DNA of 64,000 nt from Bacteroidota bacterium (GCA_038528965.1 JBCBEC010000022.1:4640-68639), one strand, 5' to 3'; shown: positions 30,735-50,649, counted from the stretch's first letter. Translations and numbers: made by a program. Notes: generated by a model not told the origin, from the sequence alone.

Positions 30735-33266
30735 ATGGTAACTTATCTGGTTTCATTGGCAGTCGTTCTAGCTTCCTTATATATAGTCTATCGCTTACTA
30801 TTTACTGTAGTAAGAGTTCCTTATGATCACGTGATTGTTCTTGAGCGCAAGGCACTTGGAGTATCTCCTGTCAATCAGCCATCACCTGAAATGCACGGTG
30901 TGGCTGTTAAAGAAAATCAGCCCGGAATATTGCCGGAAGTTATGATTTATGGTGAAAAGCGAAAAATCTTGTTTAAACCGCTGTGGAAAATTAATCCTCC
31001 TACGAAAGTCATAAAGGTGAAGGAGGGAAATATTGGCCTAGTAACTGCACTGAAGGGAAATAACAGGGCAGATCACAATACTCCTGAACCTATATCGAGT
31101 GATTTGTTTTCATATGCTCAAGCCTTCTTACTTCAAGGCGGGGAAGCAGGTATCCAGTGTGAATTCCTGACACCTAACGAGTATCCCAAAATAAATCCCC
31201 ACGTTTTTGATGTCAAAATGATTGATGTAATTGATGTGCCAAAAGGGAAAATAGGCCTTGTCTACGCAAAAAAGGGGCGCTTCAATGCGAATAGTTTTCC
31301 CCCAAAGGTAGTACCATGCAAAAATTATAGTAGTGCATCCCTATTTATTGAAAATGGCGGATACATGGGCTTACAACGAGACTATCTAACTCCTGGACAA
31401 CATGCTATTAATACAGAATTCTTCGAAATTAAGTTGGAAGATCAGACCGTTGTTCCGGACGGAGAGATTGCCATTGTCTTTTCAAAGTATGGTCGGGTTC
31501 TTGATCAAGGTCAAAGACTTGGGAGAAAAATAGAATGTGAATCCTTTGAAAAGGCTGATTTGTTCCTTAATAATGGGGGGCAAAGAGGTCCGCAAAGGTC
31601 CCATCTTACAGGAGGTGTTTACTTCATCAACACCGAAATATTCACGATTGTTACATCGAGAGAGTTGGAAAGTGATGAGCTTCAGTCCAAGATTAAAAAC
31701 GAGTACGGATTTCAGTTGCATCCGATACAGTTGAGGCCCATCGTTATTCAAAACGACGAAGTAGGTATCGTAACAACTCGAATTGGGAAGCCTCTTTTAG
31801 ATGATGACATAGCAGCACCAAAACTAAAAGACCTCAGCACGGATATTACTGTATTTCAAGATGCAGAAATGTTTGTTGAAGTTGGAGGATACAGTGGACT
31901 TCAACTGGAGCTACTCATGGCTGGCACATATTATATTAACCCCTTGTTTGCCACGGTAGAAAAAGCAAAGTTTGAATATGTTCCTGAAGACAAAGTCGGA
32001 GTCTTAATATCAAGTTATGGCAAGAATTTAGGTAGCGAACTGGAAAAGGAAGTAGCTCTAAATGAAGGCAGTTTTTCGACCAAAGTAATTAATGATCTAG
32101 AAGATGAGGTCGTGGGCCTACAAACTGATGAACAAGCTACAAAACAACGACAACTAGCCCTAGATAATCTCGGCAAAATGAGAAATAAATTAGTGCAACT
32201 GGGCTCTAGGGGCGTACTAAGCAATACGCTACCGACGGGTTATCACCCCATTAACACGAAGGTATTCAAAGTAGAAACAGTTCCTACCAATGAAATCATT
32301 TTGGAGTGGACAAACAAAGAAAAACCTCCTACCAATTATGATGCAGGACTAAATGCAATTGAGATATTTACCAAAGACAAATATAAGCTACAAGTCGAGG
32401 TTACACAGTCTATTAAGATTAATGAAGAAAATGCACCGGTAATGGTGGTCATGGTTGGAGCACAGGGAGAAGAAGATGCCACAGACGGTAGTATAAATAA
32501 TAAGTCTAAATCGATTAAAAGTCTAGTCTCAAAAGTCTTGGCAAGTTCCGTCCAACAGTTTTTTGTAAATGCAGCTGCGGCGTTCACTGCTTATGAATTT
32601 ATTGAAGCTGAGCAGGAAAAAATTCGGCACATTATTGCTCGCGATATCAAGACAGCCCTAATTGCTAGAGGGGTTACAGCCCTTAATACAACCTTTTCAG
32701 TTCTTGGTGATAGTATTCCCGAAGCTTTACAAGAACGGATAGCAGCTGAACAGGAGAATATTAATGAGATTGAAAATCTCAAATTAGAGTCCATAAAAAT
32801 TAAGCAAGAAGAAGAAACAGAAGTAGAACGACATCGCCTACAACGTCTTAAAGATCGTAATGAGTTGGAGGCCAAGAAAGACCAACAGAAAAAAACTGAT
32901 TTCATTATCGAAAGCGAGCTAAAAGAAAAACGGATTCGCGAAGAGTTAAGAATAGCTCTTGAGAAAGAAGACATTCAATTGGAAATGAATAAACTCAAAA
33001 CGGAAATAGAATTAAAAGGCGGCCCTGCACTCATGTCTCTGCCTGATATACTTAAGAATTTTCCCAAACAGCTAGAACATGTGCAAAATTTAGTGATTAG
33101 TGGAAGTGAGCTAAAGGGGATTACTGAGTTTTCAAATAATTTTGGCTTGCTACAAATGCTTCTACAGCAATTTAACATTCCTTATCAGTTTAACAACGAT
33201 TCATTGTCTGCACGGGAGACTATCAGTGATAGTAGTTCTGCTTCCACAGGTCCTAAAGATGCCTGA
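30735..33266 (+). CDS. Membrane-anchored protein with ~6 tandem SPFH-like repeat units and a Glu/Lys-rich flotillin-like coiled-coil C-terminus
   Basis: N-terminal TM 'VTYLVSLAVVLASLYIVYRLLF'. A repeated module 'F...GG..G.Q...LTPG.Y.IN...F.......V..G.IG.V.S.YG' occurs about 6 times. The motifs 'VVPDGEIAIVFSKYGRV' and 'L.PG.H.IN' echo the SPFH/band-7 N-terminal motifs. The C-terminus is E/K-rich coiled coil. Confidence 0.55.
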   Translation: MVTYLVSLAVVLASLYIVYRLLFTVVRVPYDHVIVLERKALGVSPVNQPSPEMHGVAVKENQPGILPEVMIYGEKRKILFKPLWKINPPTKVIKVKEGNIGLVTALKGNNRADHNTPEPISSDLFSYAQAFLLQGGEAGIQCEFLTPNEYPKINPHVFDVKMIDVIDVPKGKIGLVYAKKGRFNANSFPPKVVPCKNYSSASLFIENGGYMGLQRDYLTPGQHAINTEFFEIKLEDQTVVPDGEIAIVFSKYGRVLDQGQRLGRKIECESFEKADLFLNNGGQRGPQRSHLTGGVYFINTEIFTIVTSRELESDELQSKIKNEYGFQLHPIQLRPIVIQNDEVGIVTTRIGKPLLDDDIAAPKLKDLSTDITVFQDAEMFVEVGGYSGLQLELLMAGTYYINPLFATVEKAKFEYVPEDKVGVLISSYGKNLGSELEKEVALNEGSFSTKVINDLEDEVVGLQTDEQATKQRQLALDNLGKMRNKLVQLGSRGVLSNTLPTGYHPINTKVFKVETVPTNEIILEWTNKEKPPTNYDAGLNAIEIFTKDKYKLQVEVTQSIKINEENAPVMVVMVGAQGEEDATDGSINNKSKSIKSLVSKVLASSVQQFFVNAAAAFTAYEFIEAEQEKIRHIIARDIKTALIARGVTALNTTFSVLGDSIPEALQERIAAEQENINEIENLKLESIKIKQEEETEVERHRLQRLKDRNELEAKKDQQKKTDFIIESELKEKRIREELRIALEKEDIQLEMNKLKTEIELKGGPALMSLPDILKNFPKQLEHVQNLVISGSELKGITEFSNNFGLLQMLLQQFNIPYQFNNDSLSARETISDSSSASTGPKDA

Positions 33267-33547: not shown

Positions 33548-34918
33548 GTGTTTTCCAGAGTAATTAAGATCGATGATATCATTGCTGTTTCGGTGATTCT
33601 TGGCGGAGTCGTATTTCTCGTTTTTCGGGAAATGAGTCTTGGTATTCTCTCTTCTGGCCTTTTTATGGGAATCAGTCTCCTTATTAAATTCAGTGCTCGT
33701 AGGAAGAGCCTAGTCTTGGATTCAAATGCTGATTTTGCCGACGTTGAAGCAAGAGATATTTCAAGCTTTACAAGTTTTGTTTGTGAACTTGCAGGCGTAG
33801 ATCCATTACCCTTGAAGCAATACTTTCCGTATGAAATATCTAAGTACTTTGCTCTTGGGATGACAATCGTATTCACGGGAATTCTTGCTGCGGTTTCGGG
33901 AGGATATGCGATTTACAAAATATTTGATAACATCTATGCTAGTCTTTTGGTAGGGGTGCTTTGGGGGGCTTTAGTTGCTAATATTGATAGGGTAATGGTG
34001 ATGTCTATATCGAAATATCATTCACTTTTGGGGCAATTTATTCGTGCAATTCCTAGGATTCTGTTAGCTATCATCATTGCACTAGTGATCTCTAAGCCGA
34101 TTGAAGTTCGTTTTTTTGAAAACCGACTTCGAGCTGATCTAACTAAAATGAAAAGCCTTATTGATAGTACTAATATTAATAAGGCAACTAGTACTTTCAG
34201 GGTGGATGAAACTAGTCGTAGTCGTTCAATAGCACTGCAGGAAGTAAATGACATTAGGCAACAGCAACCCGATATTCCTGCTTTATTAAGCGATGAATTA
34301 GCCTTACAGCAAGGGGAATATAACCGGATAAGTCGAGATGTGCGATTTATCAGAAGCGAGCTACTCAAGCTACGAGGGGCTGATTCTCTTGGAAGGCAAC
34401 AGTATTCTAAAGTTCAAAATGAAATAGCCGACTATCAAGAGAGGTTAGGCCGTGAAGAGATAAGGCTTGGTAAGATAAATGATAGAATACTACAGATTCA
34501 AACCGAAGTTAAAGACATAATAAGCGCATTTAGAATTGATAATGAAAAAAAACTGACTGAAGCATCGCGTAGATTAGATTATTATGAAAAGGAAAAGTTC
34601 CGAATAGATTCTCTATTGAGCGGAGAAATAGGAACCATAAAAGCCAATAGTGCAGCTTTGTTTTCTAAAGGGACTTTTATGCTGGAGTTATTACTTTTAG
34701 AAGATTTAAAAAGGGAGGATAAATCGATTTTCTGGGTAAGTCTAGCTATATCACTATTGATGATCGCTGTAGAGACTATGCCAATTTTTGCTAAGCTATT
34801 GGCCCCAGCTGGGAGTTATGATTATTACCAAAAGTTTTTAACTGATCGTGTTAAAGCAGAAGCCAAAAGGCGCATCGAAGAATCTTGGCAACCACGACCC
34901 GACGAGGAGGAAGAATGA
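33548..34918 (+). CDS. Multi-TM membrane protein with long coiled-coil (DUF4407-like)
   Basis: Four N-terminal hydrophobic helices including 'LLVGVLWGALVANIDRVMVM', then ~250 aa of coiled coil and a C-terminal TM. Confidence 0.5.
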   Translation: MFSRVIKIDDIIAVSVILGGVVFLVFREMSLGILSSGLFMGISLLIKFSARRKSLVLDSNADFADVEARDISSFTSFVCELAGVDPLPLKQYFPYEISKYFALGMTIVFTGILAAVSGGYAIYKIFDNIYASLLVGVLWGALVANIDRVMVMSISKYHSLLGQFIRAIPRILLAIIIALVISKPIEVRFFENRLRADLTKMKSLIDSTNINKATSTFRVDETSRSRSIALQEVNDIRQQQPDIPALLSDELALQQGEYNRISRDVRFIRSELLKLRGADSLGRQQYSKVQNEIADYQERLGREEIRLGKINDRILQIQTEVKDIISAFRIDNEKKLTEASRRLDYYEKEKFRIDSLLSGEIGTIKANSAALFSKGTFMLELLLLEDLKREDKSIFWVSLAISLLMIAVETMPIFAKLLAPAGSYDYYQKFLTDRVKAEAKRRIEESWQPRPDEEEE

Positions 34919-35069: not shown

Positions 35070-37196
35070 ATGGAAGGTAATGGTCAATTGGAGAAGGGAT
35101 TTTTAGCGGATGCCGCTATGCTCCACGATAAATTTAATCGGCTAGAACGTTGTTTTGAGGTTGCTGCTGATTACATTGAAAATAGCGAGGATATAGCATT
35201 ACTTTTTGCCAGTAGCGATAATCGGGCTTTGATCAATTCACTAGCAGAACCTGAATTTCAGGTAGGGATTGCGGGCTGGTATTCTGCTGGGAAATCGACG
35301 CTTATAAATGCAATTTTCAAAAAGAAGAAATTCTTGCCAGAAGGGACTGCTCCAACTACAGCTTTTCCAACCTTTATCAGGAAATCTACTAATGGGAAGG
35401 AGCGTGCAAAAGTGACCTATCTTAGTGAATCAGATCGTAATAACTTAAAGCGAGAGTACGTCACTAATATTTTTGAAACATTAGCCTTGCCTAAAAATCA
35501 TCTAGAGCAACTGCTAGCATTACCGAATAAAGAAATGTTAGCAGGACTGGAAAAAATGATCGCTAGTAAAGGGGGAGAAAAGGCCCACAATAATTCTTTA
35601 CAGTGTCTGAAAGTACTCATCAAGCACTATGAGTCCGAACTTGACACGAACCCTGATCCTGTACCTATCGATAAGGCGTTACAAATTGATGAGAGTCATG
35701 ACAATAGTACAATCATTAAGCAAGTAGACATCTACCTAAATGATTTGCCCTATGATGACTATGTTGTTTTAGTAGATCTGCCGGGATTAGGCTCTAACAA
35801 CATTCGTCATGAACAGATTACTCGAGATATTGCTTTTCAGAGTGCTACTAAGTCTTTTGTTTTTGTATTTGCTGCCACGGGTACGGCTAACGGGGAATTA
35901 GAGGATTTTATTATAAGTTTAAACAATGAAAAGCTACCAATAAGCGATTCTTTTTGGGTGATTAATAAATGGACTGAGCAAGCTGCTAGTGAGCAAGTTC
36001 AAGAAAATTTTTTCCGGGATTGGCGTAAACGACAAGTAAAGATTCAGTCGGACCGCTTTTTTACTATCCCATACAGTGAACAGTTATTGGAAGATCCCAA
36101 TTTTGTGCGAAAGGTAGAGCTTTTCAAAGAACAGCTCTTTAGTTTTCTAATGCGGCAGGCCCAACGTGAATTTCTGGGTAAAGCAGAAAATCTGTACCAG
36201 CGCATTTCCAGTAAGATCGGTACAGCTTTGGTAAAAACAGAGCTACCAAAGAATGTGGACGATGATGTCTATATTTTCAACGAGAGTTCAAAATATTTTG
36301 ACCACTGGATCTCATTATTAGAATTCACCATTGATAGCGCATTAAAAAAGGCTTTCAAGAATGCAGATCTACCGGCATTCGACTTGCTCAAAACACCTGA
36401 TATAGAACAAATTGGAGTAGAAATTGAGCAGCAGTTTGACCTAGACGAGGCGGCGGAATTGGTTTTACTATCACGGCTGGTCAAACAAAGTGTTAATACT
36501 CCAGATTTTGTCAATATCTTGAGGGAAGTGCTGAATAAAGTAGACCCTGCCCAACTAGTGCGGGAACATTTGCAAAGTGATACTGCGCAAGCACTCATTC
36601 ACGAACTGTTCCAGCCTTTTACCGCTCTGACCAACCAAACCATAGCCATTGGTAGTAAGCAGCTTCCATTGTCAGACTTTATTCACAGAAGACTAGAAGA
36701 AATCATTAATGTGAATAGTATCCTATTCCGTATTGACGGAGTTGTGGACGCAGTGTACGTTCAGGTAGTCGATGAACTCATTGTTTTCTTAGCAGAGAAA
36801 TTCTTAACGGAGTTTATTAATGGTTCTACAACAGAAGCAACTGACAATACAAATACGACTCCGGCCATTTCCTCTGGGGTATATGAAGAGCGTACTAAGG
36901 CTATACTACAGGAAATACCTCGTTACATTGTTCGCTACCTTAAAGACAAACAGACTAATGTTAATCTACAACTCCGTAATACCCAACAAACCCACTTTAA
37001 ATACGTCAAATCACGCTTAGATCAACTTCTGAGAGAAGAAAGTTTTCGATCTACTGTTCGTATGATGATCATGGAAATCGTTAGGGCTGATGCCGCCCAT
37101 TATCTTGATTTAGACGATGCCAAGAAAAAAATTGATGCCATCCACGAACTCCAAAGCCTGGTGGCAAAGCGGGAACCTAACTTATCTCACACCTAA
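35070..37196 (+). CDS. Bacterial dynamin-like GTPase
   Basis: G1 'GIAGWYSAGKSTLINAIF', G2 region 'TAPTTAFPT', G3 'VLVDLPGLGS' (the dynamin DLPG), G4-like 'VINKWTE'. The 708-aa length with a long helical stalk is typical of BDLP/DynA-type proteins. Confidence 0.7.
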   Translation: MEGNGQLEKGFLADAAMLHDKFNRLERCFEVAADYIENSEDIALLFASSDNRALINSLAEPEFQVGIAGWYSAGKSTLINAIFKKKKFLPEGTAPTTAFPTFIRKSTNGKERAKVTYLSESDRNNLKREYVTNIFETLALPKNHLEQLLALPNKEMLAGLEKMIASKGGEKAHNNSLQCLKVLIKHYESELDTNPDPVPIDKALQIDESHDNSTIIKQVDIYLNDLPYDDYVVLVDLPGLGSNNIRHEQITRDIAFQSATKSFVFVFAATGTANGELEDFIISLNNEKLPISDSFWVINKWTEQAASEQVQENFFRDWRKRQVKIQSDRFFTIPYSEQLLEDPNFVRKVELFKEQLFSFLMRQAQREFLGKAENLYQRISSKIGTALVKTELPKNVDDDVYIFNESSKYFDHWISLLEFTIDSALKKAFKNADLPAFDLLKTPDIEQIGVEIEQQFDLDEAAELVLLSRLVKQSVNTPDFVNILREVLNKVDPAQLVREHLQSDTAQALIHELFQPFTALTNQTIAIGSKQLPLSDFIHRRLEEIINVNSILFRIDGVVDAVYVQVVDELIVFLAEKFLTEFINGSTTEATDNTNTTPAISSGVYEERTKAILQEIPRYIVRYLKDKQTNVNLQLRNTQQTHFKYVKSRLDQLLREESFRSTVRMMIMEIVRADAAHYLDLDDAKKKIDAIHELQSLVAKREPNLSHT

Positions 37197-37209
37197 AAAA
37201 ATAACACTT

Positions 37210-38106
37210 ATGTGGGTATGCAGTAATGATGCCACTCATCAGTTTCCAGAACGGACTGAAGATGGGTTTTGTCCGCATTGCAGTTTTCGGGGTACGCTAA
37301 TTCCCGAAGCCATCGACAAATTAGATGATCAACCGCAAGGAACAGTACCCAAAGGAGAGCAGGGGGAACAAAGAGATGTAGGCCTTTGCATTTTGTTGAT
37401 GGATGCTTCAGGTTCTATGTCAGAAAAACCATTTTCCAATGCTGAGTCTACTAAGGCAGAGTTGATTGCACGCTCAGCAGCTCGCGGCATCTTTGATCTA
37501 GAAAGCATGACCATGACTCAGAATGCTTACCTCTGTATTATCATGTTCGATGCTAACGTGAAGCAGATTGCTTTCGACACTGTATCTAATCTACTCAGAA
37601 AACACCACCGGGATCCTATTCGCTTTGAGCAGTTTTTACTGTCTAAACTGAAAGAAATGGGAGGAATGACTGATTTAAACAAGGCTTTACTAGCCGCCGA
37701 AGCACTAGCGAATAAGTTCTTGAACAAGTCTATTCCCTCTTTTCAGGACTACACAGTCATGAAGCATCGTATTATGAAAAAGGATGCGAAAACCATCAGT
37801 GTGCCCAATGTCCGTGTACTCCTCTACACAGATGGACATCACAATGCCACTGGAGAGGTTGTGGTAAACCCATTTCAGGGACAATCACCAGACTTACTAA
37901 TGGGAGCCTATTTTGGAGCAGCCTCAGATAAGGGCAATCAGCAATTAACGGCTATCCTAAGTGAATGCCCAGTACACGAAGGTGTTTTGCAACATTTCTT
38001 GTTTGATGACCCGACCAATGTGGGCTCCTTGCGTCATTTATTTAGGATGGCCTCTAACACTTCCGGTTTTTGTCCCAAGTGTATGAATATATCGGCAAGT
38101 GTATGA
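37210..38106 (+). CDS. von Willebrand factor A (vWA) domain protein with N-terminal zinc-ribbon
   Basis: N-terminal 'WVCSNDATHQ...FCPHCSF' is a Cys4-like ribbon. The MIDAS motif 'ILLMDASGSMSE' plus downstream 'LYTDGHHN' make up the vWA fold. It starts 14 nt after the dynamin-like gene. The ORF-track start at 37117 lies inside that gene and is rejected. Confidence 0.65.
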   Translation: MWVCSNDATHQFPERTEDGFCPHCSFRGTLIPEAIDKLDDQPQGTVPKGEQGEQRDVGLCILLMDASGSMSEKPFSNAESTKAELIARSAARGIFDLESMTMTQNAYLCIIMFDANVKQIAFDTVSNLLRKHHRDPIRFEQFLLSKLKEMGGMTDLNKALLAAEALANKFLNKSIPSFQDYTVMKHRIMKKDAKTISVPNVRVLLYTDGHHNATGEVVVNPFQGQSPDLLMGAYFGAASDKGNQQLTAILSECPVHEGVLQHFLFDDPTNVGSLRHLFRMASNTSGFCPKCMNISASV

Positions 38107-39791
38107 GAAAGCTATTATTTTTCCTCCCGCTGTGTATAAGCACAATTGGTACTGTGACGGCTCAAGCATACTACCAACTCCAATTGGATTATCAGACTGA
38201 TGTTTGGGTATATGAATACCTAGTGGGTAAGGATACCATTTATCTTCATCACAACGAGATCTTTTTAGCAAAAGAAGAAGAGCAAAGACAGGATACTATC
38301 TGCCTGCAATTTGCTCAAGAGTTTATCTGTATACCCGATAGCCTACTGAAGGAAATACACCCGAGATTATCGGCTACTGAATTTCGTGTTGACATAGATA
38401 CAATACAAGTTGGTGATGAAATTCATTTAGACTTCAGCGACATCCTCAGTGAAAGAACTCCTACCATCTGGATTTTACCTTACGGCGAGAGAAGTGCCTG
38501 GAAACGGTCATATAATGGCAGTAAAAGCTGCAATCTGACCAATACTCCATCTTGTAGAATATGGGCAAGGGGACTACCCTCTCTGTTCTATGAAAATGAC
38601 TCCCTTTTTATTCCGAAGACGGAAACAGTAAGCGTAGATTCAAATAGCCTAATTGAGCAGGAGCACCTTGAGCATCAATTGAACGCAACTCAGATTATCG
38701 TAAGCGACCTAGAAAAAGCATTGGAACAGAAAGAAAATCAGAGTAAAAAAGAACATCTTTTCTTCGTCTTACTTCTAGCGACCTCACTGTTTGGCTGTTA
38801 TTTTTTGTTTCAAAAAGTGGATCAACTCCGTATAGTCAATCGTGACCTACAGGCAGTAATAGCGGGGGTAAAGACTAATTATAGTAAAGAAATCCTTAAA
38901 CCGATAGCATTAACAGAACAAGTAACTTCAAAACGAACTTTCGGTATGGAAATACTTGTTTCGGCAGGCCCCCGAAAAATGTTCAGTACCGAGGATAATG
39001 ATCTTGACTTGGGAGAAGATATTGGGGGGTGCCTGCAGTTAGGCGATAGGCTATATTTCTGGGTGTTAGATGGGACGAGTCAGAGTGCTATTTTGCGCAA
39101 TTCCAAGCAAGAAGATCTGTTTTCGAGCCGCTATCTAGCGCAAAGTATTGCGGCTTTTCTTCAACAATCACTCCGACGTACTAATGGCCAATTACCAGTA
39201 CGTACTGCCTTGCTGGAGAGTATTGAAGGGGTTCGTCAGGAGTGGGAAAAAAACATCAACGCCTTGACGGAAGAGCGCAAAACAAAGATTCTCAATTTCT
39301 TAATTGACAATATTCACGCAACCTGTTCAACAACCGTACTGGTGGGGTGCCTAACTCTGGAGGGAGAACTGAAGTGCTGCCGTATTGGCGATTCCTTCCT
39401 GTTTGCCTACGACAAAAATGATGGTCTCGTACCCTCTGCTCTCTCCACCAAACCTGGAACCGAGCGCTATGATCGCCAATTTTTCCGATTACAGCGCACA
39501 ATTGGGGAAGACCAGGTAAAAGTTGTTAGCAATGAAATACAGCCTGAGTTTTGGTCCATTACGGATATTCAAAGGGTAGTTGTTGTTTCCGATGGAGTGG
39601 GAATATCAACCCGTACTTGGTTGAAGCATCTAGACGCCCTAAATAATCCGCAGAACTACCGATCAATTGTCGGTAAGATCCCGCAAGCAACCCAGGATGA
39701 CAAAACCTTTTTAATAGTGGAGATTATAGAACAACCCAACGAATCAGAATCGCTAAAGGTAGAACCTAATCATGAAAGTCAGGATATTTGA
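38103..39791 (+). CDS. Membrane-associated PP2C/SpoIIE-like serine/threonine phosphatase-domain protein
   Basis: Start taken at 'MRKLLFFLPLCISTIGTVTAQA' (signal). Its ATG overlaps the vWA stop (ATGA). There is a mid-protein TM 'LFFVLLLATSLFGCYFLF'. The C-terminal 'YFWVLDGTSQSA...VVVVSDGVG' resembles the PP2C metal-binding DG/SDG motifs. Confidence 0.5.
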   Translation: MRKLLFFLPLCISTIGTVTAQAYYQLQLDYQTDVWVYEYLVGKDTIYLHHNEIFLAKEEEQRQDTICLQFAQEFICIPDSLLKEIHPRLSATEFRVDIDTIQVGDEIHLDFSDILSERTPTIWILPYGERSAWKRSYNGSKSCNLTNTPSCRIWARGLPSLFYENDSLFIPKTETVSVDSNSLIEQEHLEHQLNATQIIVSDLEKALEQKENQSKKEHLFFVLLLATSLFGCYFLFQKVDQLRIVNRDLQAVIAGVKTNYSKEILKPIALTEQVTSKRTFGMEILVSAGPRKMFSTEDNDLDLGEDIGGCLQLGDRLYFWVLDGTSQSAILRNSKQEDLFSSRYLAQSIAAFLQQSLRRTNGQLPVRTALLESIEGVRQEWEKNINALTEERKTKILNFLIDNIHATCSTTVLVGCLTLEGELKCCRIGDSFLFAYDKNDGLVPSALSTKPGTERYDRQFFRLQRTIGEDQVKVVSNEIQPEFWSITDIQRVVVVSDGVGISTRTWLKHLDALNNPQNYRSIVGKIPQATQDDKTFLIVEIIEQPNESESLKVEPNHESQDI

Positions 39792-41007
39792 TAAAGAATA
39801 CAACTACACTTCTGATTACACTACGAATAGCGATAATTGGAAATTTCAGAACCGCGATGATTTTACGATTACGCCTGTCAAAATTGGCGGATACCCCTGC
39901 TTTATCAAGCGCTTTGAGCAGGAGCCACCGGGTATTAGCGGATTAAAACTATTAAGAGGTAAGTTTATCGAGAACCTGCCCATTGTGCATGATGTAGTGA
40001 CGGATCAGGAAGATAATAGGCCAGTCACCTATTTGTTTTTAGAATATCATCCTGGAAGGACCTTGACGGAACAGTTGCGAGAAGGCCTAGAAATTAGGCC
40101 ACAGGTTTTAGTAGAAGATTTGTATCAGGCACTCGCTGACTTGCACGAACTGGGTTTCTGGCATACTGATTTTTGCGAAAAAAATATCTACTATTCTTCG
40201 CGTGCCAAGCGATTCATAATCATTGACCTGGATAGTATAGAACACGTTTCTAATCTGCCAACACCTATTCCCCATGAGCCAGGTGGTTTACTAAATCAGG
40301 ATTTCGCCATCGTAGCTAGAAGTTTTCTCAACGAGTACATAGGCACCGACCACAAGTTGAACAAAGATCTATCTGGAGTGACGTTAAATTACTTTCAATT
40401 ACTCGTGCTGATCGCTAAACTTGGCTTTTATATCGAGCAAAAGCAATTGAATACAACCTTTAAGTATACTCTTAGTAATTTCGATGATTTGCACCATTAC
40501 ATGCACCATAAAGTATCAAAACCTGGCCAAGCCATTTTTAAAGCGGGAATCGCTCGGGAAGGAGGGAAACTGAGACGCAAAGAAGTGTTAGCTTTTGCGG
40601 ATGAAATACTTCCGTTAGGTACAGTATACATTCTATCAACGCGTAATCGGAAGGAAGTGATCTCCTCTCCTCAGATTCTATCTTTTTTAGCCAATGGTCA
40701 AAGCGGTAGAGTTAAGGTTCGGAGAGGTAAAAAAATACGAATATCCTGGAGTGTAAAATACGCTGATGAAGTACAATTCAATGAACAGGCTTATCACCAA
40801 TTGTGTCATCACATTAATATACCCGTACAACAGAATATGGAGCTGAATCTAATGGTAACGGGGACTGTAAATGGTGAATCCATTACGAATAAACAAACGA
40901 TTGTCGTGGAGATCAAACTTCCCTCAACTGGTACTTACTTATTGATCTTTTGTACCGTATTCATCCTGTTATTAATACTTTGGCTAGTTTTTTCTCCAAT
41001 AATTTAG
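39772..41007 (+). CDS. Ser/Thr protein-kinase-like protein with C-terminal TM anchor
   Basis: Catalytic-loop-like 'HTDFCEKNIYY' (HxDxxxxN) followed by 'IIIDLDS' (a DFG-equivalent). C-terminal hydrophobic 'LLIFCTVFILLLILWLVF'. Overlaps the upstream gene by 20 nt. Confidence 0.5.
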   Translation: MKVRIFDKEYNYTSDYTTNSDNWKFQNRDDFTITPVKIGGYPCFIKRFEQEPPGISGLKLLRGKFIENLPIVHDVVTDQEDNRPVTYLFLEYHPGRTLTEQLREGLEIRPQVLVEDLYQALADLHELGFWHTDFCEKNIYYSSRAKRFIIIDLDSIEHVSNLPTPIPHEPGGLLNQDFAIVARSFLNEYIGTDHKLNKDLSGVTLNYFQLLVLIAKLGFYIEQKQLNTTFKYTLSNFDDLHHYMHHKVSKPGQAIFKAGIAREGGKLRRKEVLAFADEILPLGTVYILSTRNRKEVISSPQILSFLANGQSGRVKVRRGKKIRISWSVKYADEVQFNEQAYHQLCHHINIPVQQNMELNLMVTGTVNGESITNKQTIVVEIKLPSTGTYLLIFCTVFILLLILWLVFSPII

Positions 41008-41014
41008 TCCGTAG

Positions 41015-44000
41015 ATGTCCAATCAACTTCTACAACCTTATTTTTCCAGGCACCTTGCTTTTTTGATTGGTGTTCAGGAGTATCAATATCTGAATGACTT
41101 GGAAACGCCGCTTAATGACGTGCACGATTTAGCGGAAGTGCTGAAAAAAGAGCATGGATTTCAAGTAGAAAATCCCTTACTTAACCCTGATAAAGCGAGC
41201 TTAGAAGCATATATCCGAGATTATATTCCCCAAAAGGTAAAAGAGGAAAAAAATGATCGAGTCGTAATTTATTTTGCGGGTCACGGAGAAGCGGATATAA
41301 ATGAGGAGGGTTCGCCACAAGGCTACCTCCTACCCTCTGATGCGCTCTCTGGTAATACAAGTAGTTCTGTTCCCATGTCGCTGCTGCACAGTGTAGTAGA
41401 AGCTTTACCATGCCAACACCTACTACTTATTCTTGACTGTTGCTTTGCTGGTGCTTTCCAGTGGGATGTCAAGAAACGTGGATATTCTAAATCTCAAATG
41501 GGGAATAGATTATTTCGCGCTTATTTTGCTAGGAATGCTGAGAAAAAAGCCCGACAGGTCATTGTGTCCACCGGTGATGACCAGAAAGCAGTAGACATTT
41601 TGGACCGCCGTTTAGATCGGAATTCCCCCTTTGCTGCTGGTCTTATCAAGGGTCTACAGGGACTGGCTGATAATCCCAAAAATGGTTTTATATCGATAAG
41701 TAAGCTGGTAGGCTATGTGGATACATCATTGGAGGTAACGCTTTCAGGTAATGGTGAAGTAATCAGGCAAAAAGCTTTTGCGTATACGCTAAATAATCAT
41801 GAGCACGGAGAATTTTTCTTCTGCTCTCCATATACTAAAATCAGCCTTTGGGATGATGATTATCGTATTAATCCTTTTAAGGGCTGGGCGGCTTATGAAG
41901 AGGCTGACGCCTATCGTTTCTATGGAAGAGACGAAGACATGGAGCAGTTACTGGATACACTAGAGCAACATAAATATACCTTTCTACATGGTAGTACTTA
42001 CACTGGGAAAAAATCTGTAGTTACAGCGGGACTATTACCGGAGCTCAAGAGTCGTAATCTATCAGTATGCCGATTAATAGTAGGACAAATTGATCAGGTG
42101 GAGTTCGTTAAGCAGATCGAGAGGTATCATCGTGTTATAGTTATTTGCCCATCAGATGTTCATCTGCAAGTCGCTCGGGAAAACATTAAAACGGTGTTGG
42201 AGGCAACAGCCAAGCGTAGTGATATCCATGTTTTGTGCTGTGCAGATACGCATTTGTACGAGCAATTGCCTATAGGCGATTGGGCTAAGTTTGGCCCTAT
42301 TGAAAGCCTGAAACTAAAATCACTCACGCGCCTATCACTGCGAGATATGATTGAAAACCCACTGGTTTTCAGGGGCTTTGGCTTTGAACCGGCTAAACTA
42401 CCCGAGATTATACTGGAGGAGTTACGACCTACTCTAGCACCGCTACCCCTTTTATCTGCGACGATGCACGCTACGTTCCAAGACTTTATTGCAGAAGGCC
42501 GGCCCACCCGCATGATTACCCTGCAAAATTTCCAGCGAACAGGCGGTGTACAAGGGGTTTTTATTAAACAGTTTAAGACGGCGCTAGAGCAGCTAGACTC
42601 AGATGCCAGGCAGTGGGTAATGCTACTTTTAAGTCGTTTCATACAGCAAAGTGACCATCTTGTGCTAAGCCGGGACGTACAATTGCAGGAGCTAGAGTAT
42701 GAAGACCCAACAATTACAACACACATACTCGCCCTACTGGACCATCTACACAAGGCGGGTGTACTATTTCGGAAGAGGAATACTTACCAATTTGCCTATC
42801 CGCTTCCTATCAGTAGCTGGCCACCCTTGCAGACCTGGTTGCTGTCTATTGGTCAGGATAAAATTGATCTGCAACGCGAATTGTGGCTTGCTACTACTAA
42901 ATATGAGCGTTCAAAGCAAAATGAAGTTCGGATAGTAGGAAAGGAGAATAGCGAAACCGCTGAAGGCCTTTGGGGGTCACACTTAGAGCTTGCTAAGGCG
43001 CTTACACTTATGCATAGTCAACCGTACTTTTTCAATTCACAGGAAAAAGCATTTTTGACAGAGAGCCAAGCACAAAGAGAGAGCATATTAGTAGAAAAAT
43101 CTCTAGTCGGAGCAAAAAGTATAGCAAAGCATAGTCCAAATTTTGCTTTGCGGCTGTTGGAAAACTTGCACCGTAAACACCCTAAGAAAAAGTCTATCCT
43201 GAACGCTCTGGAAGAGTTGCTTTCTAACAGTTTGTTCTATGGGGTATTTGCTAACCCGCCAGTCACAAGTGAAGCCAAGCAATTTTGTTTTCATCCCTCG
43301 GGAAAATATCTTTTCCTGCTTAAAGATCAATTCTTAGAAGTAGTCAATTGGATCACGGGTCAGAAAAATACCCTTTCGCTATCTACTGCTCCCATCCAGA
43401 TGCAAGCTTATCGAGAAGCCGAAGCAATCTTGCTCTTGCTACCTGGGAAGTTACACTGTTTAGATGCAATGCTGGCTACCGAATGGACTAAGGAAATACC
43501 AGAAGATATTACGAGCTTCGCAATCGGTGAGACTACTGGTCATGTATATTTAATGAGTCAATTGGGGGTAGTATCTTGGATAACTACTGAAGGAGGAGTT
43601 TATGGGCAACAGACTATCGAGGCCCTCAAAGTAGGAAAGTTTCTTCAGGTAGACCCGAAGGAAGAATACTTGCTTATGGGAGGGCAAGTAGGAGCAAGCG
43701 TAGCCCATGGTCAGCTGGGGTTATTCCTAATTAAGGACGGACATTCTAGATGGGCACTTCAGCAGAAAAAAAAGATAAACCTCTTGCAAAAGTTATCTAC
43801 TCGAAATATTGGTTTACAGGCTATTGCCTTTTCACCTGATAGCCAAATAATTGCCGTAGGGCTAGGTAGTGAACAGATCATTTTTTCACGTACTAAGAAA
43901 AAATACGGAGAAGTCGTTTTGTATGATCTCTCTGGCCAACAATTAGCACTTTTAGAAGGATTTAAGGGAAATGTTTTAGCGCTAGCCTGGAGTTCTCACG

Positions 44001-45229
44001 AACAATGGCTGGCCACATCTAGTGATACCCGAGTTATCATCTGGAATATAAAAGGGGAACAATTACTTACGATACAGTGTAAGCATCCGGTATTGCAATT
44101 GGCCTTTATTCCCAATCGAGACGATTTCCTCTACTGCCTGGATCAGACAGGAACATTATTCTATGTTAAATTGACCCGTTTACAGTTACCCAATCTGTCT
44201 GCTGGTGTTATTAAAGAAGGGCTGCGTTCGATTGTTTCGAATGGGGAATACCAAGGAAATTATCACTTTGTGGGTGTAGAAATGCCACACCGACAGCAGC
44301 GACTCTACTATTGGGTAGCAGATCATACCAGGATTGTTCAAACTAGAGAATGGACAGTTCCCATGCCGATGAATGCTATCATTCCGCTGTCAAAATTAGG
44401 TATGTTAGCAGCGGCGGGTACAGATGGGAATATCTACTTCCTTAATTTGACAGACAAAGATAACTTCACAATAACTCCTCGGGCCCCACAATTAGCTCCC
44501 ATCTCTACTCTAGTTACGGATCAGCAACAGGACTGGTTAGCGTGGGCCTCAGCTCCAAAAACTGATTTACGCTTCAAGACCAGTGACCCAACTATCAACT
44601 TCATGCGATTCAACAATAAGACAGCAAAGAGTTGTCCCGTGGTATTGTATCATCTCGATACCAGAAAAAGTAGAGTGTTAGCCAGTTTCCCTGAAAATGT
44701 TATCCAATTACTATTCCACCCCAAGGAAGAACAAATTCTTATTGCATTAGAAAATGGCCTGATACAGCTCGTTGATTTTCAAGGTGTAATTCACTGGGAT
44801 TCAAAAAAGGATGGTTACCAATTCGGGCAGATCGATAAGATAGCGATCAGCAAAGATGGTAGGCGGTTGCTGATCGGAGGTGAGAAGTTGATTCTCATAA
44901 ACGATTTCAAAGACTTGGATCAACTCACAGCGGCAAAAGAAGGTGTAACCGCTATCGCACATGATCCCACCGGTGGGTATTTCGCCACTGGTTCAAAAGA
45001 TGGTTACCTACAAATATGGGCTGTCGATGGTACGCTATTAATCACATTTTTGAATGGAGAAAGCAACCGCCCAGTAACCTGCCTATCCTTTACTCCAGAT
45101 GGTAAATATCTAGTGGCCAGCCAAGATTATCAAGGGAGCTTTAAATGCTGGCATTCTCTAAAAGGAATGTTTGACACAGTGTTCATTCCTAAGCTTCCTA
45201 TTAGTAATAACAGTAATGCAAATATTTGA
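41015..45229 (+). CDS. Tripartite caspase-like protease / STAND-type NTPase / WD40-repeat protein (1404 aa)
   Basis: Caspase dyad 'VVIYFAGHGE' and 'LILDCCFAGAF'. P-loop 'FLHGSTYTGKKSV' in a ~350-aa NACHT/NB-ARC-like module. The C-terminal ~600 aa has WD40-like units ('FSPDGKYLVASQDYQGSFKCW', 'IAHDPTGGYFATGSKDGYLQIWAVDG', 'LAWSSHEQWLATSSDTRVIIWN'). Starts 8 nt after the kinase-like gene. Confidence 0.75.
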   Translation: MSNQLLQPYFSRHLAFLIGVQEYQYLNDLETPLNDVHDLAEVLKKEHGFQVENPLLNPDKASLEAYIRDYIPQKVKEEKNDRVVIYFAGHGEADINEEGSPQGYLLPSDALSGNTSSSVPMSLLHSVVEALPCQHLLLILDCCFAGAFQWDVKKRGYSKSQMGNRLFRAYFARNAEKKARQVIVSTGDDQKAVDILDRRLDRNSPFAAGLIKGLQGLADNPKNGFISISKLVGYVDTSLEVTLSGNGEVIRQKAFAYTLNNHEHGEFFFCSPYTKISLWDDDYRINPFKGWAAYEEADAYRFYGRDEDMEQLLDTLEQHKYTFLHGSTYTGKKSVVTAGLLPELKSRNLSVCRLIVGQIDQVEFVKQIERYHRVIVICPSDVHLQVARENIKTVLEATAKRSDIHVLCCADTHLYEQLPIGDWAKFGPIESLKLKSLTRLSLRDMIENPLVFRGFGFEPAKLPEIILEELRPTLAPLPLLSATMHATFQDFIAEGRPTRMITLQNFQRTGGVQGVFIKQFKTALEQLDSDARQWVMLLLSRFIQQSDHLVLSRDVQLQELEYEDPTITTHILALLDHLHKAGVLFRKRNTYQFAYPLPISSWPPLQTWLLSIGQDKIDLQRELWLATTKYERSKQNEVRIVGKENSETAEGLWGSHLELAKALTLMHSQPYFFNSQEKAFLTESQAQRESILVEKSLVGAKSIAKHSPNFALRLLENLHRKHPKKKSILNALEELLSNSLFYGVFANPPVTSEAKQFCFHPSGKYLFLLKDQFLEVVNWITGQKNTLSLSTAPIQMQAYREAEAILLLLPGKLHCLDAMLATEWTKEIPEDITSFAIGETTGHVYLMSQLGVVSWITTEGGVYGQQTIEALKVGKFLQVDPKEEYLLMGGQVGASVAHGQLGLFLIKDGHSRWALQQKKKINLLQKLSTRNIGLQAIAFSPDSQIIAVGLGSEQIIFSRTKKKYGEVVLYDLSGQQLALLEGFKGNVLALAWSSHEQWLATSSDTRVIIWNIKGEQLLTIQCKHPVLQLAFIPNRDDFLYCLDQTGTLFYVKLTRLQLPNLSAGVIKEGLRSIVSNGEYQGNYHFVGVEMPHRQQRLYYWVADHTRIVQTREWTVPMPMNAIIPLSKLGMLAAAGTDGNIYFLNLTDKDNFTITPRAPQLAPISTLVTDQQQDWLAWASAPKTDLRFKTSDPTINFMRFNNKTAKSCPVVLYHLDTRKSRVLASFPENVIQLLFHPKEEQILIALENGLIQLVDFQGVIHWDSKKDGYQFGQIDKIAISKDGRRLLIGGEKLILINDFKDLDQLTAAKEGVTAIAHDPTGGYFATGSKDGYLQIWAVDGTLLITFLNGESNRPVTCLSFTPDGKYLVASQDYQGSFKCWHSLKGMFDTVFIPKLPISNNSNANI

Positions 45230-45342: not shown

Positions 45343-45627
45343 ATGGCAGACCAATCGGCAAAACTTCTGGAAATTTGTTTAGAAAATCCTTTGCTACAGA
45401 ACCTAGTTAAGGCTTTGGCAGAGGAGCTTAAAACAAGTAGTAATGATGAAGATGATTGGATTACAGCTGGGGAGGCAATGACAATACTTCAAATTTCATC
45501 TGCAACAACATTGAAGAAGTACAGAGAACAGAACGAGATCAAGTATAGCAAGCCTTCTGGTATGAAGCGTATCTTCTACAGTAGAAGTTCCATTCTCAAA
45601 TTCTTAGAAAAAAAATCTAATCATTAA
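45343..45627 (+). CDS. Small helix-turn-helix DNA-binding protein (excisionase/HTH_17-like, common on Bacteroidetes mobile elements)
   Basis: Internal start 'MADQSAKLLE...'. HTH-like 'WITAGEAMTILQISSATTLKKYREQNEIKYSK'. Lies at the cargo/backbone junction. Confidence 0.45.
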   Translation: MADQSAKLLEICLENPLLQNLVKALAEELKTSSNDEDDWITAGEAMTILQISSATTLKKYREQNEIKYSKPSGMKRIFYSRSSILKFLEKKSNH

Positions 45628-45631
45628 GATC

Positions 45632-45904
45632 ATGACTTATTCTGGTGACGCTGTATTAGAAGGTTTCAATTCTGGTTATGCTATTGAAAAATATAGGCCT
45701 GATATTGCATCTCAGATAAACAATTCTATTGGAGAAAGTCAGATTGATTTTTTTCGGGGCTTCGTCGCTGGAAGTCAACAGTACATCAAAGAACGTACCC
45801 AATCTAAAACTATCGGTAAGCTTCGTGATATTACCCGGCAAATACCTCGTCCCACTCAGAAGGGTAAGGACAGGCCCGATAAGGGCTTTGAGATAGATCG
45901 TTAA
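45632..45904 (+). CDS. Hypothetical protein
   Basis: ORF only. Confidence 0.3.
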   Translation: MTYSGDAVLEGFNSGYAIEKYRPDIASQINNSIGESQIDFFRGFVAGSQQYIKERTQSKTIGKLRDITRQIPRPTQKGKDRPDKGFEIDR

Positions 45905-45905
45905 C

Positions 45906-46952
45906 CTATGGCCTTTCTCGTAGTTTCTTTTTCACAAAGTTGACGAAAGCCCCATCTGCCTTTTCTGGGTTAAATCCATTCATAAGCTCATATGAAAACT
46001 GCGTGTGTAAGTTATCAAAGGACCAAGCCGTTCCTGATTGTTCGACCATCTGTCTCACCTTTTGTAGGGTTTCTGGCTTGATACTTGGAAGGTCCTTTAG
46101 CTTCATGACCGGTCTAAGTAAGCCAAATTCTACCTTGTCCTGTTCGTTTAATCGTAGCCAATAATCGGGTAAATGATCGTCCTTCTCGATCTGGCGAATG
46201 AAGTAGCGGAACTTCTTCAGCGAAGAAGTAGAACCAGTCTTTTCTTTGAGCTTTGTTAGCGAAATACTCCAGCTTTCCTGTTTGCCACAGTGCTTTCGAG
46301 CAATCTCATACAAGCGTCGCTCTAGCGCTTTTCCGAGCCAAAAATAACGACGACTTATAGTGAGTACCTCTTTACCGATGATAGAATTGAAGAACCATTC
46401 GGATAGGGTGATTTCCAAGCGGAGCATCCGGTTTTTTACCCTACTGCTTTCAATGATTTCGTAACTATCAATCAGACCAAAAGCGGAAGTGATTTCTCGT
46501 TTATCGGTCTTAATATTCGTTTTGATACTTACCCCTTGTAAGCGATCTAATGCCTTTTTGAGGAGGCCGTAGCCTTTGCCATTGGTTGGGCGGTTTGTAG
46601 CTACTAGGAGATCGTGACTGGATATTCTTAGTGTTCGTTTTGGTGTATTTCCTCTATTGATTGCATCCATAAGTAAAGACGCACAGTAGAGCAATACGTC
46701 TTTATCGAAAATAGTGGGTAGGCCCAATACGCTAGGAGCTATTCGTAAGGTGCTAGTACCATTGGTGTATTCCAATGTCCTAACATCCCGATTTTTGGAT
46801 AGCGAGAAAATGGGATGTTCCATTGAAGCAATGTCATCCTTAAGCGGCAGATTGTCAAAAATATCGGCGATGAAGAAGTCCTTGGTGGGGTGCCTTTCTG
46901 GAGCGAGTGTTGGCTTTACGGGCTTTAATTCTAGTGATTGCTGCATAGTCAT
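45906..46952 (-). CDS. repA: Replication initiator protein (RepA-family of Bacteroidetes plasmids/mobilisable elements)
   Basis: N-terminal 'FFIADIFDNLPLKDDIASMEHPIFSLSK' is characteristic of the replication-initiator-A family. Iteron-like direct repeats lie immediately upstream. Confidence 0.55.
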   Translation of the reverse strand: MTMQQSLELKPVKPTLAPERHPTKDFFIADIFDNLPLKDDIASMEHPIFSLSKNRDVRTLEYTNGTSTLRIAPSVLGLPTIFDKDVLLYCASLLMDAINRGNTPKRTLRISSHDLLVATNRPTNGKGYGLLKKALDRLQGVSIKTNIKTDKREITSAFGLIDSYEIIESSRVKNRMLRLEITLSEWFFNSIIGKEVLTISRRYFWLGKALERRLYEIARKHCGKQESWSISLTKLKEKTGSTSSLKKFRYFIRQIEKDDHLPDYWLRLNEQDKVEFGLLRPVMKLKDLPSIKPETLQKVRQMVEQSGTAWSFDNLHTQFSYELMNGFNPEKADGAFVNFVKKKLRERP

Positions 46953-46954
46953 TC

Positions 46955-47125
46955 TTCGTAACTTCGAGAACTAGCATAGCAGCTAGAATATCTTTGGCAA
47001 TATCAATTCGCAACTTCGAGAACCATCCCCAAAAGCGTTCGGAACTCTAGGAACCGATGTACGGAACTTCGGGAACTTTGGTTCGATACTTTAAGAACCT
47101 TCGTACGGAACTTTAGGAACCGCCC
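46955..47125. repeat. Iteron-like direct repeats upstream of repA (candidate origin)
   Basis: 'aacttcgagaac' appears twice (46960, 47012). 'ggaactctaggaacc', 'cggaacttcgggaac' and 'cggaactttaggaacc' (47041-47121) are variants of GGAACTNNNGGAAC. Confidence 0.5.
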
Positions 47126-47312
47126 AGTTGCGAAAAGTCAGGCTGAGCCTGGGTTTTAACGGGTGATTTCGTGCCGTAACACTACACTAACACACTATAT
47201 AACGTAAGTTATAACACTAGCAAAAGTGGCGGGTGCTTCGCACTGATTTAATAAGGAATTCGCTGACGCGAATCAGTTTTGGTATTTGCTATTGAAAGGA
47301 AAAAAGAAGAGG

Positions 47313-47912
47313 TTAGCCAAAGAAGTAGACAATGCCTATGATGAGCGTCACCATAATAACTGCAACAGCAAAGAATTTCAAAACATCGCCGATTTCCTTG
47401 ATTAGTGATGATCGGGAACCCTTCGTTTTTTCTTTTGGGCTGCGATGATCTTCCAGGAGTCGAGTATGTTGCGAAATGCTTTTGGTCAGTTCACCTACCT
47501 GTTGCTGCATAAGATGTTCACGCGCCTCTGCTTTACTGTCTCGATCTTGCGCCTCTAGTCGTTCTCGTATGCGTTCAGATTTCTCTTGTTCCAGTTGGGA
47601 CTCCAAGGATTCGATTTTATGCTGAAGTAGGGCAGCATTCACCATGTTTTGAGTTGTGCGCGGCTGTATTTTTGTGCTAGTTTTAGCTATTGTATTTGCG
47701 GCATTGCTCTTGTTAGACAGTATTTCCTGCATACGATCTGGGAACACCCGCTGCAATTCTATCAGGCGAATAACCTTATTTCCATTCTCATCTTTTTCAA
47801 AAGAGATACCGTCATTTCCAGCCGTTTTAGTACGCTTGTTAAGGGTACTGCGTGACTTGAATCCAAGTAGCTGCGTAGCCTCTGAAATGGTATATTTTTC
47901 CTTCATTTCCAT
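47313..47912 (-). CDS. Hypothetical coiled-coil protein with C-terminal TM; possible N-terminal HTH
   Basis: Start 'MEMKEKYTISEATQLLGF' is preceded by AGGAGG on the minus strand. Basic and coiled-coil middle, TM 'FFAVAVIMVTLIIGIVYFF' at the end. Divergent from the primase gene. Confidence 0.45.
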   Translation of the reverse strand: MEMKEKYTISEATQLLGFKSRSTLNKRTKTAGNDGISFEKDENGNKVIRLIELQRVFPDRMQEILSNKSNAANTIAKTSTKIQPRTTQNMVNAALLQHKIESLESQLEQEKSERIRERLEAQDRDSKAEAREHLMQQQVGELTKSISQHTRLLEDHRSPKEKTKGSRSSLIKEIGDVLKFFAVAVIMVTLIIGIVYFFG

Positions 47913-48046
47913 CTGTATCCTCCTGTGCTTTGGCATTATGTATTGATACAGGCAGTGTATTCTTACACCTTGCAAAGCGCAAGCTCTTTTTGCTTGTATT
48001 GCTGTACTAGAAGGGATAAGTTGTACTATAAGGTTAAGGAAAGGAT

Positions 48047-49042: not shown

Positions 49043-49062
49043 TTTTTTCTTTTCAACAGCAC

Positions 49063-50161: not shown

Positions 50162-50369
50162 GGATTTAGGTTAAAAAATAAGGTTTTATGCTAAGGGTTT
50201 CACCCTCGCGCCCAGCAATAAAAATAGGCTGCGACCGTGTGGTACGCCTTTAGCGTACTGCCCGCACCACTCTCGCCGATTTTTCTTTGTAGTTGCTACC
50301 CAATCCTCGCCGGAGGGCAGAAGGGTATAGCAGATAGCTATAGCCCTTCAGTAACTAAGGAGAAAAAAG

Positions 50370-50588
50370 ATGGACATGAAAACCTGTCGTGATTTAATCT
50401 GGGAACAGCTTGACTTGGAAAATTCGGCCTGTCTCATATTTCTTGATGGAGAAAAGCATTCAATCTGGAATAATCCAGCAGATGTACTCCGTCAAGTACG
50501 CATGTTAGAGGAGCAGTATGATCCTTCGTGCATTTCAATAGAAGTACTTCCCAATGTGAATTGCATCGATGGAGGATACTTCTTCTAA
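50370..50588 (+). CDS. Hypothetical small protein
   Basis: ORF preceded by 'taaggag'. Confidence 0.3.
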   Translation: MDMKTCRDLIWEQLDLENSACLIFLDGEKHSIWNNPADVLRQVRMLEEQYDPSCISIEVLPNVNCIDGGYFF

Positions 50589-50649
50589 AGGCACTTGCCT
50601 TTTTCCTCAATTTGAGGATGATTAACAACAACCAATTAAGGAGAATAAA

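Follow-up and report, generated by a model that had tools for sequence, protein, structure and literature searches.

A divergent vWA–PP2C–kinase triad between a dynamin-like GTPase and a caspase–nSTAND1–WD40 protein in a putative operon of a Bacteroidota bacterium

In a stretch of 64,000 nucleotides (nt) from a Bacteroidota bacterium (GCA_038528965.1, JBCBEC010000022.1:4640-68639; the whole of it is called the window here), positions 35070-45229 hold a putative operon of five intact open reading frames (ORFs) on the + strand, G1 to G5. The first encodes a dynamin-like GTPase, the middle three a Zn-ribbon vWA protein, a PP2C phosphatase and a protein-kinase-like kinase, and the last a large caspase–nSTAND1–WD40 protein. 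As judged from the sequences, the middle genes constitute a switch of the known TerY-P type; what is new is that a divergent version of this triad is combined, once, with a dynamin and with a caspase–STAND–WD40 protein in which the nucleotide switch appears disabled. We lean, with moderate confidence, towards a reading in which a membrane-proximal phospho-switch gates a dynamin and a caspase effector, the whole being a mosaic operon that a mobile element carries as cargo, with a likely role in conflict or suicide.

The five genes and their products

The genes are tightly packed: 13 nt separate G1 from G2, G2 and G3 overlap by 4 nt (ATGA), G3 and G4 overlap by 20 nt, and 7 nt lie between G4 and G5 (coordinates in Table 1). 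A consensus scan inside the operon revealed no convincing terminator and no excess of promoter-like sites, and the operon is set off on either side by gaps of 151 nt (from a DUF4407 gene to the start of G1) and about 113 nt (from G5 to the likely start of an HTH_17 gene). Because of the tight junctions, the outcome of the scan and these flanking gaps, a single transcription unit is plausible. The same five genes were called independently on an identical public contig (Logan SRR22824309), and identical fragments at NCBI are annotated as hypothetical proteins of a “Bacteroidota bacterium” metagenome-assembled genome; all copies of the operon that we found are identical ones. An earlier account of this DNA, made without database searches (the sequence-only reading), had described five packed co-directional genes. 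Our ORFs and junctions agree with it, apart from a trivial difference in two spacers (given as 14 and 8 nt instead of 13 and 7), and its family assignments are backed for each of the five proteins by Pfam, a family profile or an AlphaFold2 (AF2) model.

G2 scores 16.6 bits against Pfam VWA_2, under the threshold of 27 bits, and a sequence search of the PDB with the profile of its vWA family yielded no match. Its AF2 model (pLDDT, the predicted local distance difference test, 84.7; predicted template-modelling score, pTM, 0.88) has 277 PDB matches at E<=0.001 in Foldseek, and those listed are mostly vWA domains. All residues of the metal ion-dependent adhesion site (MIDAS; Table 1) and the Zn ligands C253/H256/C288/C291 are invariant among 16 relatives; we propose that the MIDAS site would be suited to the binding of acidic or phosphorylated peptides.

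For G3, the predicted topology comprises a signal or transmembrane (TM) segment (aa 4-22), some 195 residues outside, a TM segment (aa 218-236) and a cytoplasmic PP2C domain. The latter matches Pfam PP2C_2 with 34.6 bits (cut-off 24; E 1.9e-8), and 44 relatives show no change in its metal-ligand motifs (E305/D306, D323/G324, D497/G498 and D532/D533).

G4 stays under the Pfam kinase thresholds. The profile of its 25-sequence family retrieves WbdD from the PDB (E 1.8e-11), and also PknB, PknG and PpkA; 25 relatives without exception have K46, D133, N138, D152 and D154, among which are the catalytic Lys, Asp and Asn as well as the DFG-equivalent Asp. The C-terminus consists of a beta-rich stretch and a TM segment and has no Cys cluster. 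G4 is thus tail-anchored and probably active as a kinase. We considered whether its C-terminus could be an EACC1 domain paired with an “EACC1-type” caspase in G5 and rejected the idea: Pfam gave no support, and the NCBIfam caspase match was under the cut-off. When the five proteins and the vWA family were compared with PADLOC and NCBIfam, G2 and G3 had no match and G4 had weak generic matches only.

G1 matches Pfam Dynamin_N with 61.2 bits (cut-off 27; E 1.6e-16) and can be aligned from end to end with a clade of dynamin-like proteins (DLPs) of 700-730 aa. With its AF2 model (pLDDT 74), the best Foldseek match is SynDLP (7zw6; E 2e-15), and BDLP, Cj-DLP and IniA are retrieved as well; as modelled, G1 is a dynamin-like protein with the full-length GTPase and helical-stalk fold. 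The sequence-only reading had listed a complete set of the four G-protein motifs, including DLPG. The first three are indeed present, while the fourth has lost its Asp: it reads NKWT (aa 299-302, window 35964-35975) against N[KQ]WD in 13 of 13 aligned relatives. Given NKWT, the nucleotide specificity of G1 may be altered.

G5 has Pfam matches to Peptidase_C14 (61 bits, 1.3e-16), nSTAND1 (132 bits, 7e-38) and WD40 (2.5e-24). Its family is large: at E<=0.001 it numbers 27,274 representatives, and a cut-off of E<=1e-30 still leaves 926. The members have a common caspase–STAND architecture with variable C-terminal repeats. The caspase dyad that the sequence-only reading had pointed out is intact. 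Its claim of a P-loop NTPase needs correction, the conserved Ser/Thr of Walker A and the acidic residues of Walker B being lost. In Walker A, G5 has GKK in place of the GK[ST] shown by 149 of the 149 closest relatives; its Walker B is E-R-Y-H-R, where the relatives show D-Q-x-E-E (of the 149, 147 have the D, 143 the Q, 144 the first E and 131 the last). The nucleotide switch of G5 thus looks dead, and a P-loop Lys-to-Ala mutant may be uninformative because the Walker A and B residues are already lost. Such motif loss would mean either that control has been handed to the co-encoded switch or that decay of the gene is beginning.

Table 1. Features of the operon and of the surrounding window (positions counted from the first nucleotide of the window; residue numbers are those of the protein)
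Feature	Position	Strand	Description
G1	35070-37196	+	dynamin-like GTPase, 708 aa; P-loop GWYSAGKST, switch-I T97, DLPG, G4 motif NKWT
G2	37210-38106	+	soluble Zn-ribbon vWA protein, 298 aa; complete MIDAS D65xS67xS69, T154, D208; no TM segment
G2 MIDAS motif DASGS	37402-37416	+	invariant in 16 relatives; same local motif in E. coli YegL
G3	38103-39791	+	receptor-like PP2C phosphatase, 562 aa; PP2C domain aa ~283-545
G4	39772-41007	+	protein-kinase-like kinase, 411 aa; C-terminal TM anchor ~aa 381-408
G5	41015-45229	+	1404 aa: caspase aa 12-219, nSTAND1 NTPase-like module aa ~290-690, WD40 propellers aa ~880-1385
G5 caspase dyad, H90 to C143	41282-41443	+	both residues in 149/149 relatives, kept in G5
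G5 degenerate Walker A and B	41990-42133	+	GSTYTGKKS (aa 326-334) and IERYHR (aa 368-373)
tRNA-Arg	22873-22945		adjoins the mobile element
Upstream caspase-domain gene 1	23684-25615	+	
TPR-histidine kinase and LuxR response regulator	26290-29141		gene pair between the upstream caspase genes
Upstream caspase-domain gene 2	29200-30729	+	fused to GUN4 domain
843-aa protein	30735-33266		N-terminal TM segment, no family match
DUF4407 membrane protein	33548-34918	+	five predicted TM segments, coiled-coil region
Mobile-element backbone	45343-63632		first listed gene: HTH_17 (Xis-like)
RepA	45906-46952	-	
Primase	48047-49042		
SSB	50650-51009		
TrwC relaxase	51676-54501	-	
Coupling protein	54730-56217		
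ArdA	60302-60952		
Small resolvase	62171-62728		
HEPN protein	62790-63632	-	

Distribution of the triad and of its flanking partners

In the indexed protein database, the G4 kinase has one detectable relative, located in a vWA–PP2C–kinase trio without a dynamin or caspase gene, and the G2 vWA family comprises 16 clusters. Scanning the vWA alignment against one genome per species gave 49 loci, in Chitinophagaceae, Hymenobacter, Dyadobacter, Niastella, Bacteroidales, about 10 Nitrospinota, one Microcoleaceae cyanobacterium and a few others. The order vWA, PP2C, kinase-like is kept in some 45 of the 49, often with overlapping stop and start codons. The kinase partner in these loci is between 265 and 1270 aa long and often tandem-duplicated, and it usually shows one TM segment with 0-550 variable residues after it; the phosphatase usually carries a variable N-terminal ectodomain. 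In the Bacteroidota homologues, the TM topology is conserved. The conserved unit is G2-G3-G4, a three-gene family of its own.

The neighbourhoods of the triads were searched over 10 kb with profile hidden Markov models of the dynamin clade and of 150 caspase–STAND sequences, and the window's own copy was the sole positive. Since dynamin, caspase and nSTAND1 genes were not found near the other triads, the five-gene arrangement is a singleton in the data searched, within which the triad is the conserved unit. The sequence-only reading had proposed conservation of the gene order and co-occurrence of the orthologues in other genomes as a check; the five-gene order is unique to this locus among the data searched, and co-occurrence extends to the three triad genes, with no dynamin or G5-type gene found within 10 kb of the other triads.

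G1 has relatives with a telling context. Five of the nearer ones (24-33% identity in the best local alignment) had their contexts looked up, and all five adjoin non-orthologous vWA, FHA, PP2C or Ser/Thr kinase (STK) genes or DO-GTPase pairs. In Microcystis aeruginosa (L059/L060), the order is DLP, vWA, vWA, FHA, PP2C and STK-TPR; at P0023, genes for an STK, a PP2C, a ZnR-FHA and a vWA protein are divergent from the DLP gene; at P0021, two STKs and FHA proteins flank the DLP; and P0024 and P0022 feature DO-GTPase pairs, vWA fragments and an STK. The same themes are found among the dynamin neighbours in the metagenome loci L094, L099, L102 and L116. Because the relatives of G1 adjoin different versions of the module, the pairing of a dynamin with a phospho-switch recurs independently, and the repeated pairing of this dynamin clade with differing vWA/PP2C/kinase modules supports G1-G4 as a functional unit. 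In a longer DLP subgroup (770-830 aa), none of these neighbours was detected at the sensitivity of phmmer. A literature search for DLPs with FHA, PP2C or vWA found no paper on the association. The G1-related dynamin loci with vWA/FHA/PP2C/kinase or DO-GTPase neighbours include L144-L146, L057, L058 and L143.

The triads elsewhere have neighbours of their own. In sixteen loci, mostly from Chitinophagaceae, the triad is located directly 3′ of genes of an extracellular contractile injection system (eCIS), namely those for the CIS tape measure protein (CIS_TMP), an AAA ATPase and an eCIS_core-domain protein (L007, L010-L013, L015, L019-L024, L027, L031, L032 and L037; triad at ~10000-15000 in each locus). 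L007 and L032 have an inserted GH25 muramidase gene that separates the vWA gene from the PP2C gene. A literature search for eCIS with PP2C, kinase or vWA returned nothing relevant, and we found no paper linking eCIS to such a triad. The Nitrospinota loci L041-L048 (~2600-16000) carry, in this order, a TssK/VasE-like gene, a canonical vWA/PP2C/beta-helix/Pkinase set, the divergent triad and a gene for a transglutaminase–TPR–FGE-sulfatase protein, so that two vWA/PP2C/kinase sets occur there in tandem. In Hymenobacter and Dyadobacter, genes for an integrase, GmrSD, a DUF4011 helicase-nuclease and Dnd/Ssp-like proteins are nearby. A tblastn search with G2 against plasmid and phage collections gave no match.

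Comparison with known systems

TerY-P is a triad of a vWA protein, a PP2C phosphatase and a Ser/Thr kinase (Anantharaman et al. 2012; Gao et al. 2020, as summarised in PMC11090510 and PMC7699616); it is a mobile phospho-switch joined to varied effector systems, and some of its versions are proven stand-alone anti-phage systems (PMC11090510, PMC4978471, PMC7699616). G2-G4 resemble it in that a vWA protein whose MIDAS is complete, a PP2C and a Ser/Thr kinase are encoded side by side in one direction, and in belonging to a triad family that is likewise mobile and plugged into different effector contexts. They deviate from it as follows: the vWA protein and not the kinase bears the Zn ribbon; the G4 kinase has a C-terminal TM segment and neither a C-terminal OB fold nor a Zn ribbon; the G3 phosphatase sits in the membrane and has an ectodomain; and the flanking genes encode a dynamin and a caspase–STAND protein. 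G2 and G3 did not match the TerY models of PADLOC and NCBIfam, a result that is non-discriminating, as Pfam-positive vWA and PP2C controls from other loci were likewise negative in PADLOC. On sequence comparison, G2-G4 is a divergent subfamily of the TerY-P-type architecture. Where the sequence-only reading saw no named defence system, this stands for the five-gene whole, which is unnamed in PADLOC, and needs correction for the middle three genes, which correspond to the named triad.

Biochemical precedents for this combination of genes exist. The kinase and the phosphatase of yegL-pphC-yegI of Escherichia coli are biochemically active (bioRxiv 10.1101/819920, 10.1101/303594), and the Deinococcus genes DRA0331-0334 are a further biochemical precedent for vWA/kinase/PP2C operons. 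The E. coli genes come in the same order, vWA, PP2C, membrane Ser/Thr kinase, and the local motifs CILLxDxSGSM and IDxDS are common to both, but the likeness remains at the level of motifs: hhalign gave probabilities of 81% and 72%, and BLASTP of one phosphatase against the other was not significant. Moreover, YegL lacks a Zn ribbon, PphC is soluble and the neighbouring gene encodes an Hsp70 (YegD).

The resemblance to NTP-dependent conflict architectures noted in the sequence-only reading is real (Kaur et al. 2020, PMC7159879). In that paper, genes for kinases, PP2Cs and stand-alone vWA proteins are tied to conflict systems centred on GTPases, which are DO-GTPases and not dynamins. Its GTPase-centric/iSTAND ternary systems combine, as here, an NTPase with a vWA protein and with an inactive STAND that has a caspase at its N-terminus, and they have the membrane-proximal setting and the phyla in common with our locus. 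In contrast to them, the GTPase is a dynamin-like one, which PMC7159879 does not mention; G5 derives from the active nSTAND1 family and not from an iSTAND, and no MoxR or AAA is found in the five genes or their neighbours. Neither GAP1 nor a DO-GTPase gene is among the window genes scanned (which lie outside 1-13 kb, here and below), unlike in the GAP1/DO-GTPase systems; both occur beside G1 relatives elsewhere.

G1 itself has the full-length dynamin fold and the first three G motifs of the bacterial DLPs SynDLP, BDLP, Cj-DLP1/2 and IniA. It differs from Eleos (LeoA/LeoBC) in that the match to LeoA is confined to the P-loop (aa 54-84, 23.5 bits), and neither LeoBC nor a second DLP is present. 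G5, in turn, has the Peptidase_C14 His-Cys dyad, the nSTAND1 module and the C-terminal repeats of caspase–nSTAND1–repeat proteins, from which its degenerate Walker A and B motifs set it apart.

The PpkA/PppA/Fha1 pathway of the type VI secretion system (T6SS) likewise has a kinase in the membrane that, together with a PP2C and a vWA domain, controls a contractile machine; the G4 profile matches PpkA, and homologous triads adjoin eCIS and TssK genes. The vWA domain of PpkA, however, is fused to the kinase and periplasmic, and an FHA protein is required there, whereas neither an FHA domain nor a T6SS or contractile injection system family was found among the window genes scanned.

Genomic setting and proposed role

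The operon is carried by a mobile element adjoining tRNA-Arg, the backbone of which is listed in Table 1. We sought a second copy of the tRNA-Arg 3′ end (att repeat) in the window and found none, nor did we find a tyrosine integrase there, but only the small resolvase. From the tRNA-inserted island of the sequence-only reading, there remains a mobile element next to tRNA-Arg, of which the boundaries and the integrase were not found in the window. Upstream of G1, the 843-aa protein has a homologue (4e-53) directly after the triad in the Microcoleaceae cyanobacterium (L018, 13270-15393), which hints that the functional neighbourhood may extend in this direction. The closest vWA homologue (L061) has a giant Band_7-like protein upstream; the notion that the 843-aa protein is akin to it and SPFH/flotillin-like was dropped, as a PDB search and BLASTP were unsupportive.

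We envisage the following mechanism. The core would be G2-G3-G4, a TerY-P-type phosphorylation switch near the membrane. The G3 ectodomain would sense an envelope or infection cue and thereby shift the balance between kinase and phosphatase, which would set the phosphorylation of G2 and/or of the flanking G1 and G5 and so control their assembly, with the MIDAS-bearing G2 possibly nucleating the complex. One output would be G1, a dynamin-like GTPase working on the membrane; the other would be G5, in which the caspase domain may act as proteolytic effector while the WD40 propellers bind a target or partner and recruit substrates. Because the NTPase switch of G5 looks dead, we propose that its activation depends on the co-encoded switch. 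A role in biological conflict—defence against phages or mobile elements, or regulated suicide—appears likely, and it is favoured by the mobile-element setting, the two further caspase genes upstream and the precedent of TerY-P.

Several results weigh against a gated dynamin and caspase effector. Over the 10 kb around each of the approximately 50 other triad loci, phmmer and profiles detected neither a dynamin gene nor a caspase or nSTAND1 gene; in particular, the G5-type family is large, yet none of its members occurs within that distance. A second instance of the five-gene arrangement was not found in the data searched. The operon contains no FHA or other known phospho-reader. PADLOC and NCBIfam lend no system-level support, so that the defence role put forward by the sequence-only reading found no system-level match when the PADLOC check was run. 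Lastly, the deviations at nucleotide contacts in both NTPase modules, G1 and G5, could equally fit decay.

The isolation of the triad elsewhere is also what one would expect if three independent modules, a DLP, a TerY-P-like triad and a caspase–STAND–WD40 protein, had been juxtaposed in a cargo or defence island, co-transcribed and functionally uncoupled. We regard this as possible, if rather unlikely. In every other locus, the triad occurs without either partner, including beside the integrase and restriction genes of Hymenobacter and Dyadobacter; defence genes commonly cluster, and the caspase–nSTAND1 family has 926 representatives at E<=1e-30. The junctions of 13 and 7 nt, however, are too short for separate promoters and no terminator was found, the relatives of G1 are repeatedly located beside vWA/PP2C/kinase genes, and the degenerate NTPase of G5 speaks against an autonomous activation of the STAND type.

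It appears quite improbable that the triad is a general envelope-signal switch, as PpkA/PppA/Fha1 is for the T6SS, and that it employs the dynamin and the caspase for membrane maintenance or development and not for defence. The window genes scanned include no contractile injection system gene, the mobile element also carries ArdA, HEPN and further caspases, and other copies of the triad are in restriction islands; these observations have to be set against the sixteen triads directly 3′ of contractile injection system genes, the TssK-like gene beside the Nitrospinota triads, the match of the kinase profile to T6SS PpkA and the nature of the phosphatase and the kinase as membrane proteins with ectodomains. 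A decaying, non-functional mosaic of modules joined by recent recombination, as the singleton arrangement and the loss of near-invariant residues (the Asp of the fourth G motif in G1, Walker A and B in G5) might suggest, is very improbable, because all five ORFs are intact, including the one of 1404 aa, the caspase dyad and the kinase, PP2C and MIDAS residues are preserved, and changes confined to NTPase sites look more like selective rewiring than decay at large.

Beyond this locus, the triad could be a portable “decision-to-die” gate, which determines the level of phosphorylation at which suicidal or lytic outputs are released. Here it would have assumed control of a caspase–STAND protein with a disabled NTP switch and would also work with a dynamin; in Chitinophagaceae, sometimes with a GH25 muramidase inserted, it would govern the production or lytic release of eCIS. 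This broader idea we offer as speculation that is unlikely to hold.

If the phospho-switch reading of the operon is correct, G2-G4 would represent a widespread, uncharacterised vWA–PP2C–kinase subfamily present in at least 49 species, mostly of Bacteroidota and Nitrospinota, that is identified by no PADLOC or NCBIfam model. G5 would provide a natural case of a STAND–caspase protein without its nucleotide switch, encoded behind a kinase–phosphatase pair, in which phosphorylation may replace NTP-driven oligomerisation in the activation of a bacterial caspase. The recurrent link between dynamins and vWA/PP2C/kinase genes would be one that is undescribed in the literature searched, as would be the link between the triad and contractile injection systems. 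Current ideas would not be overturned by this; rather, the known “grammar” of bacterial conflict systems would be extended.

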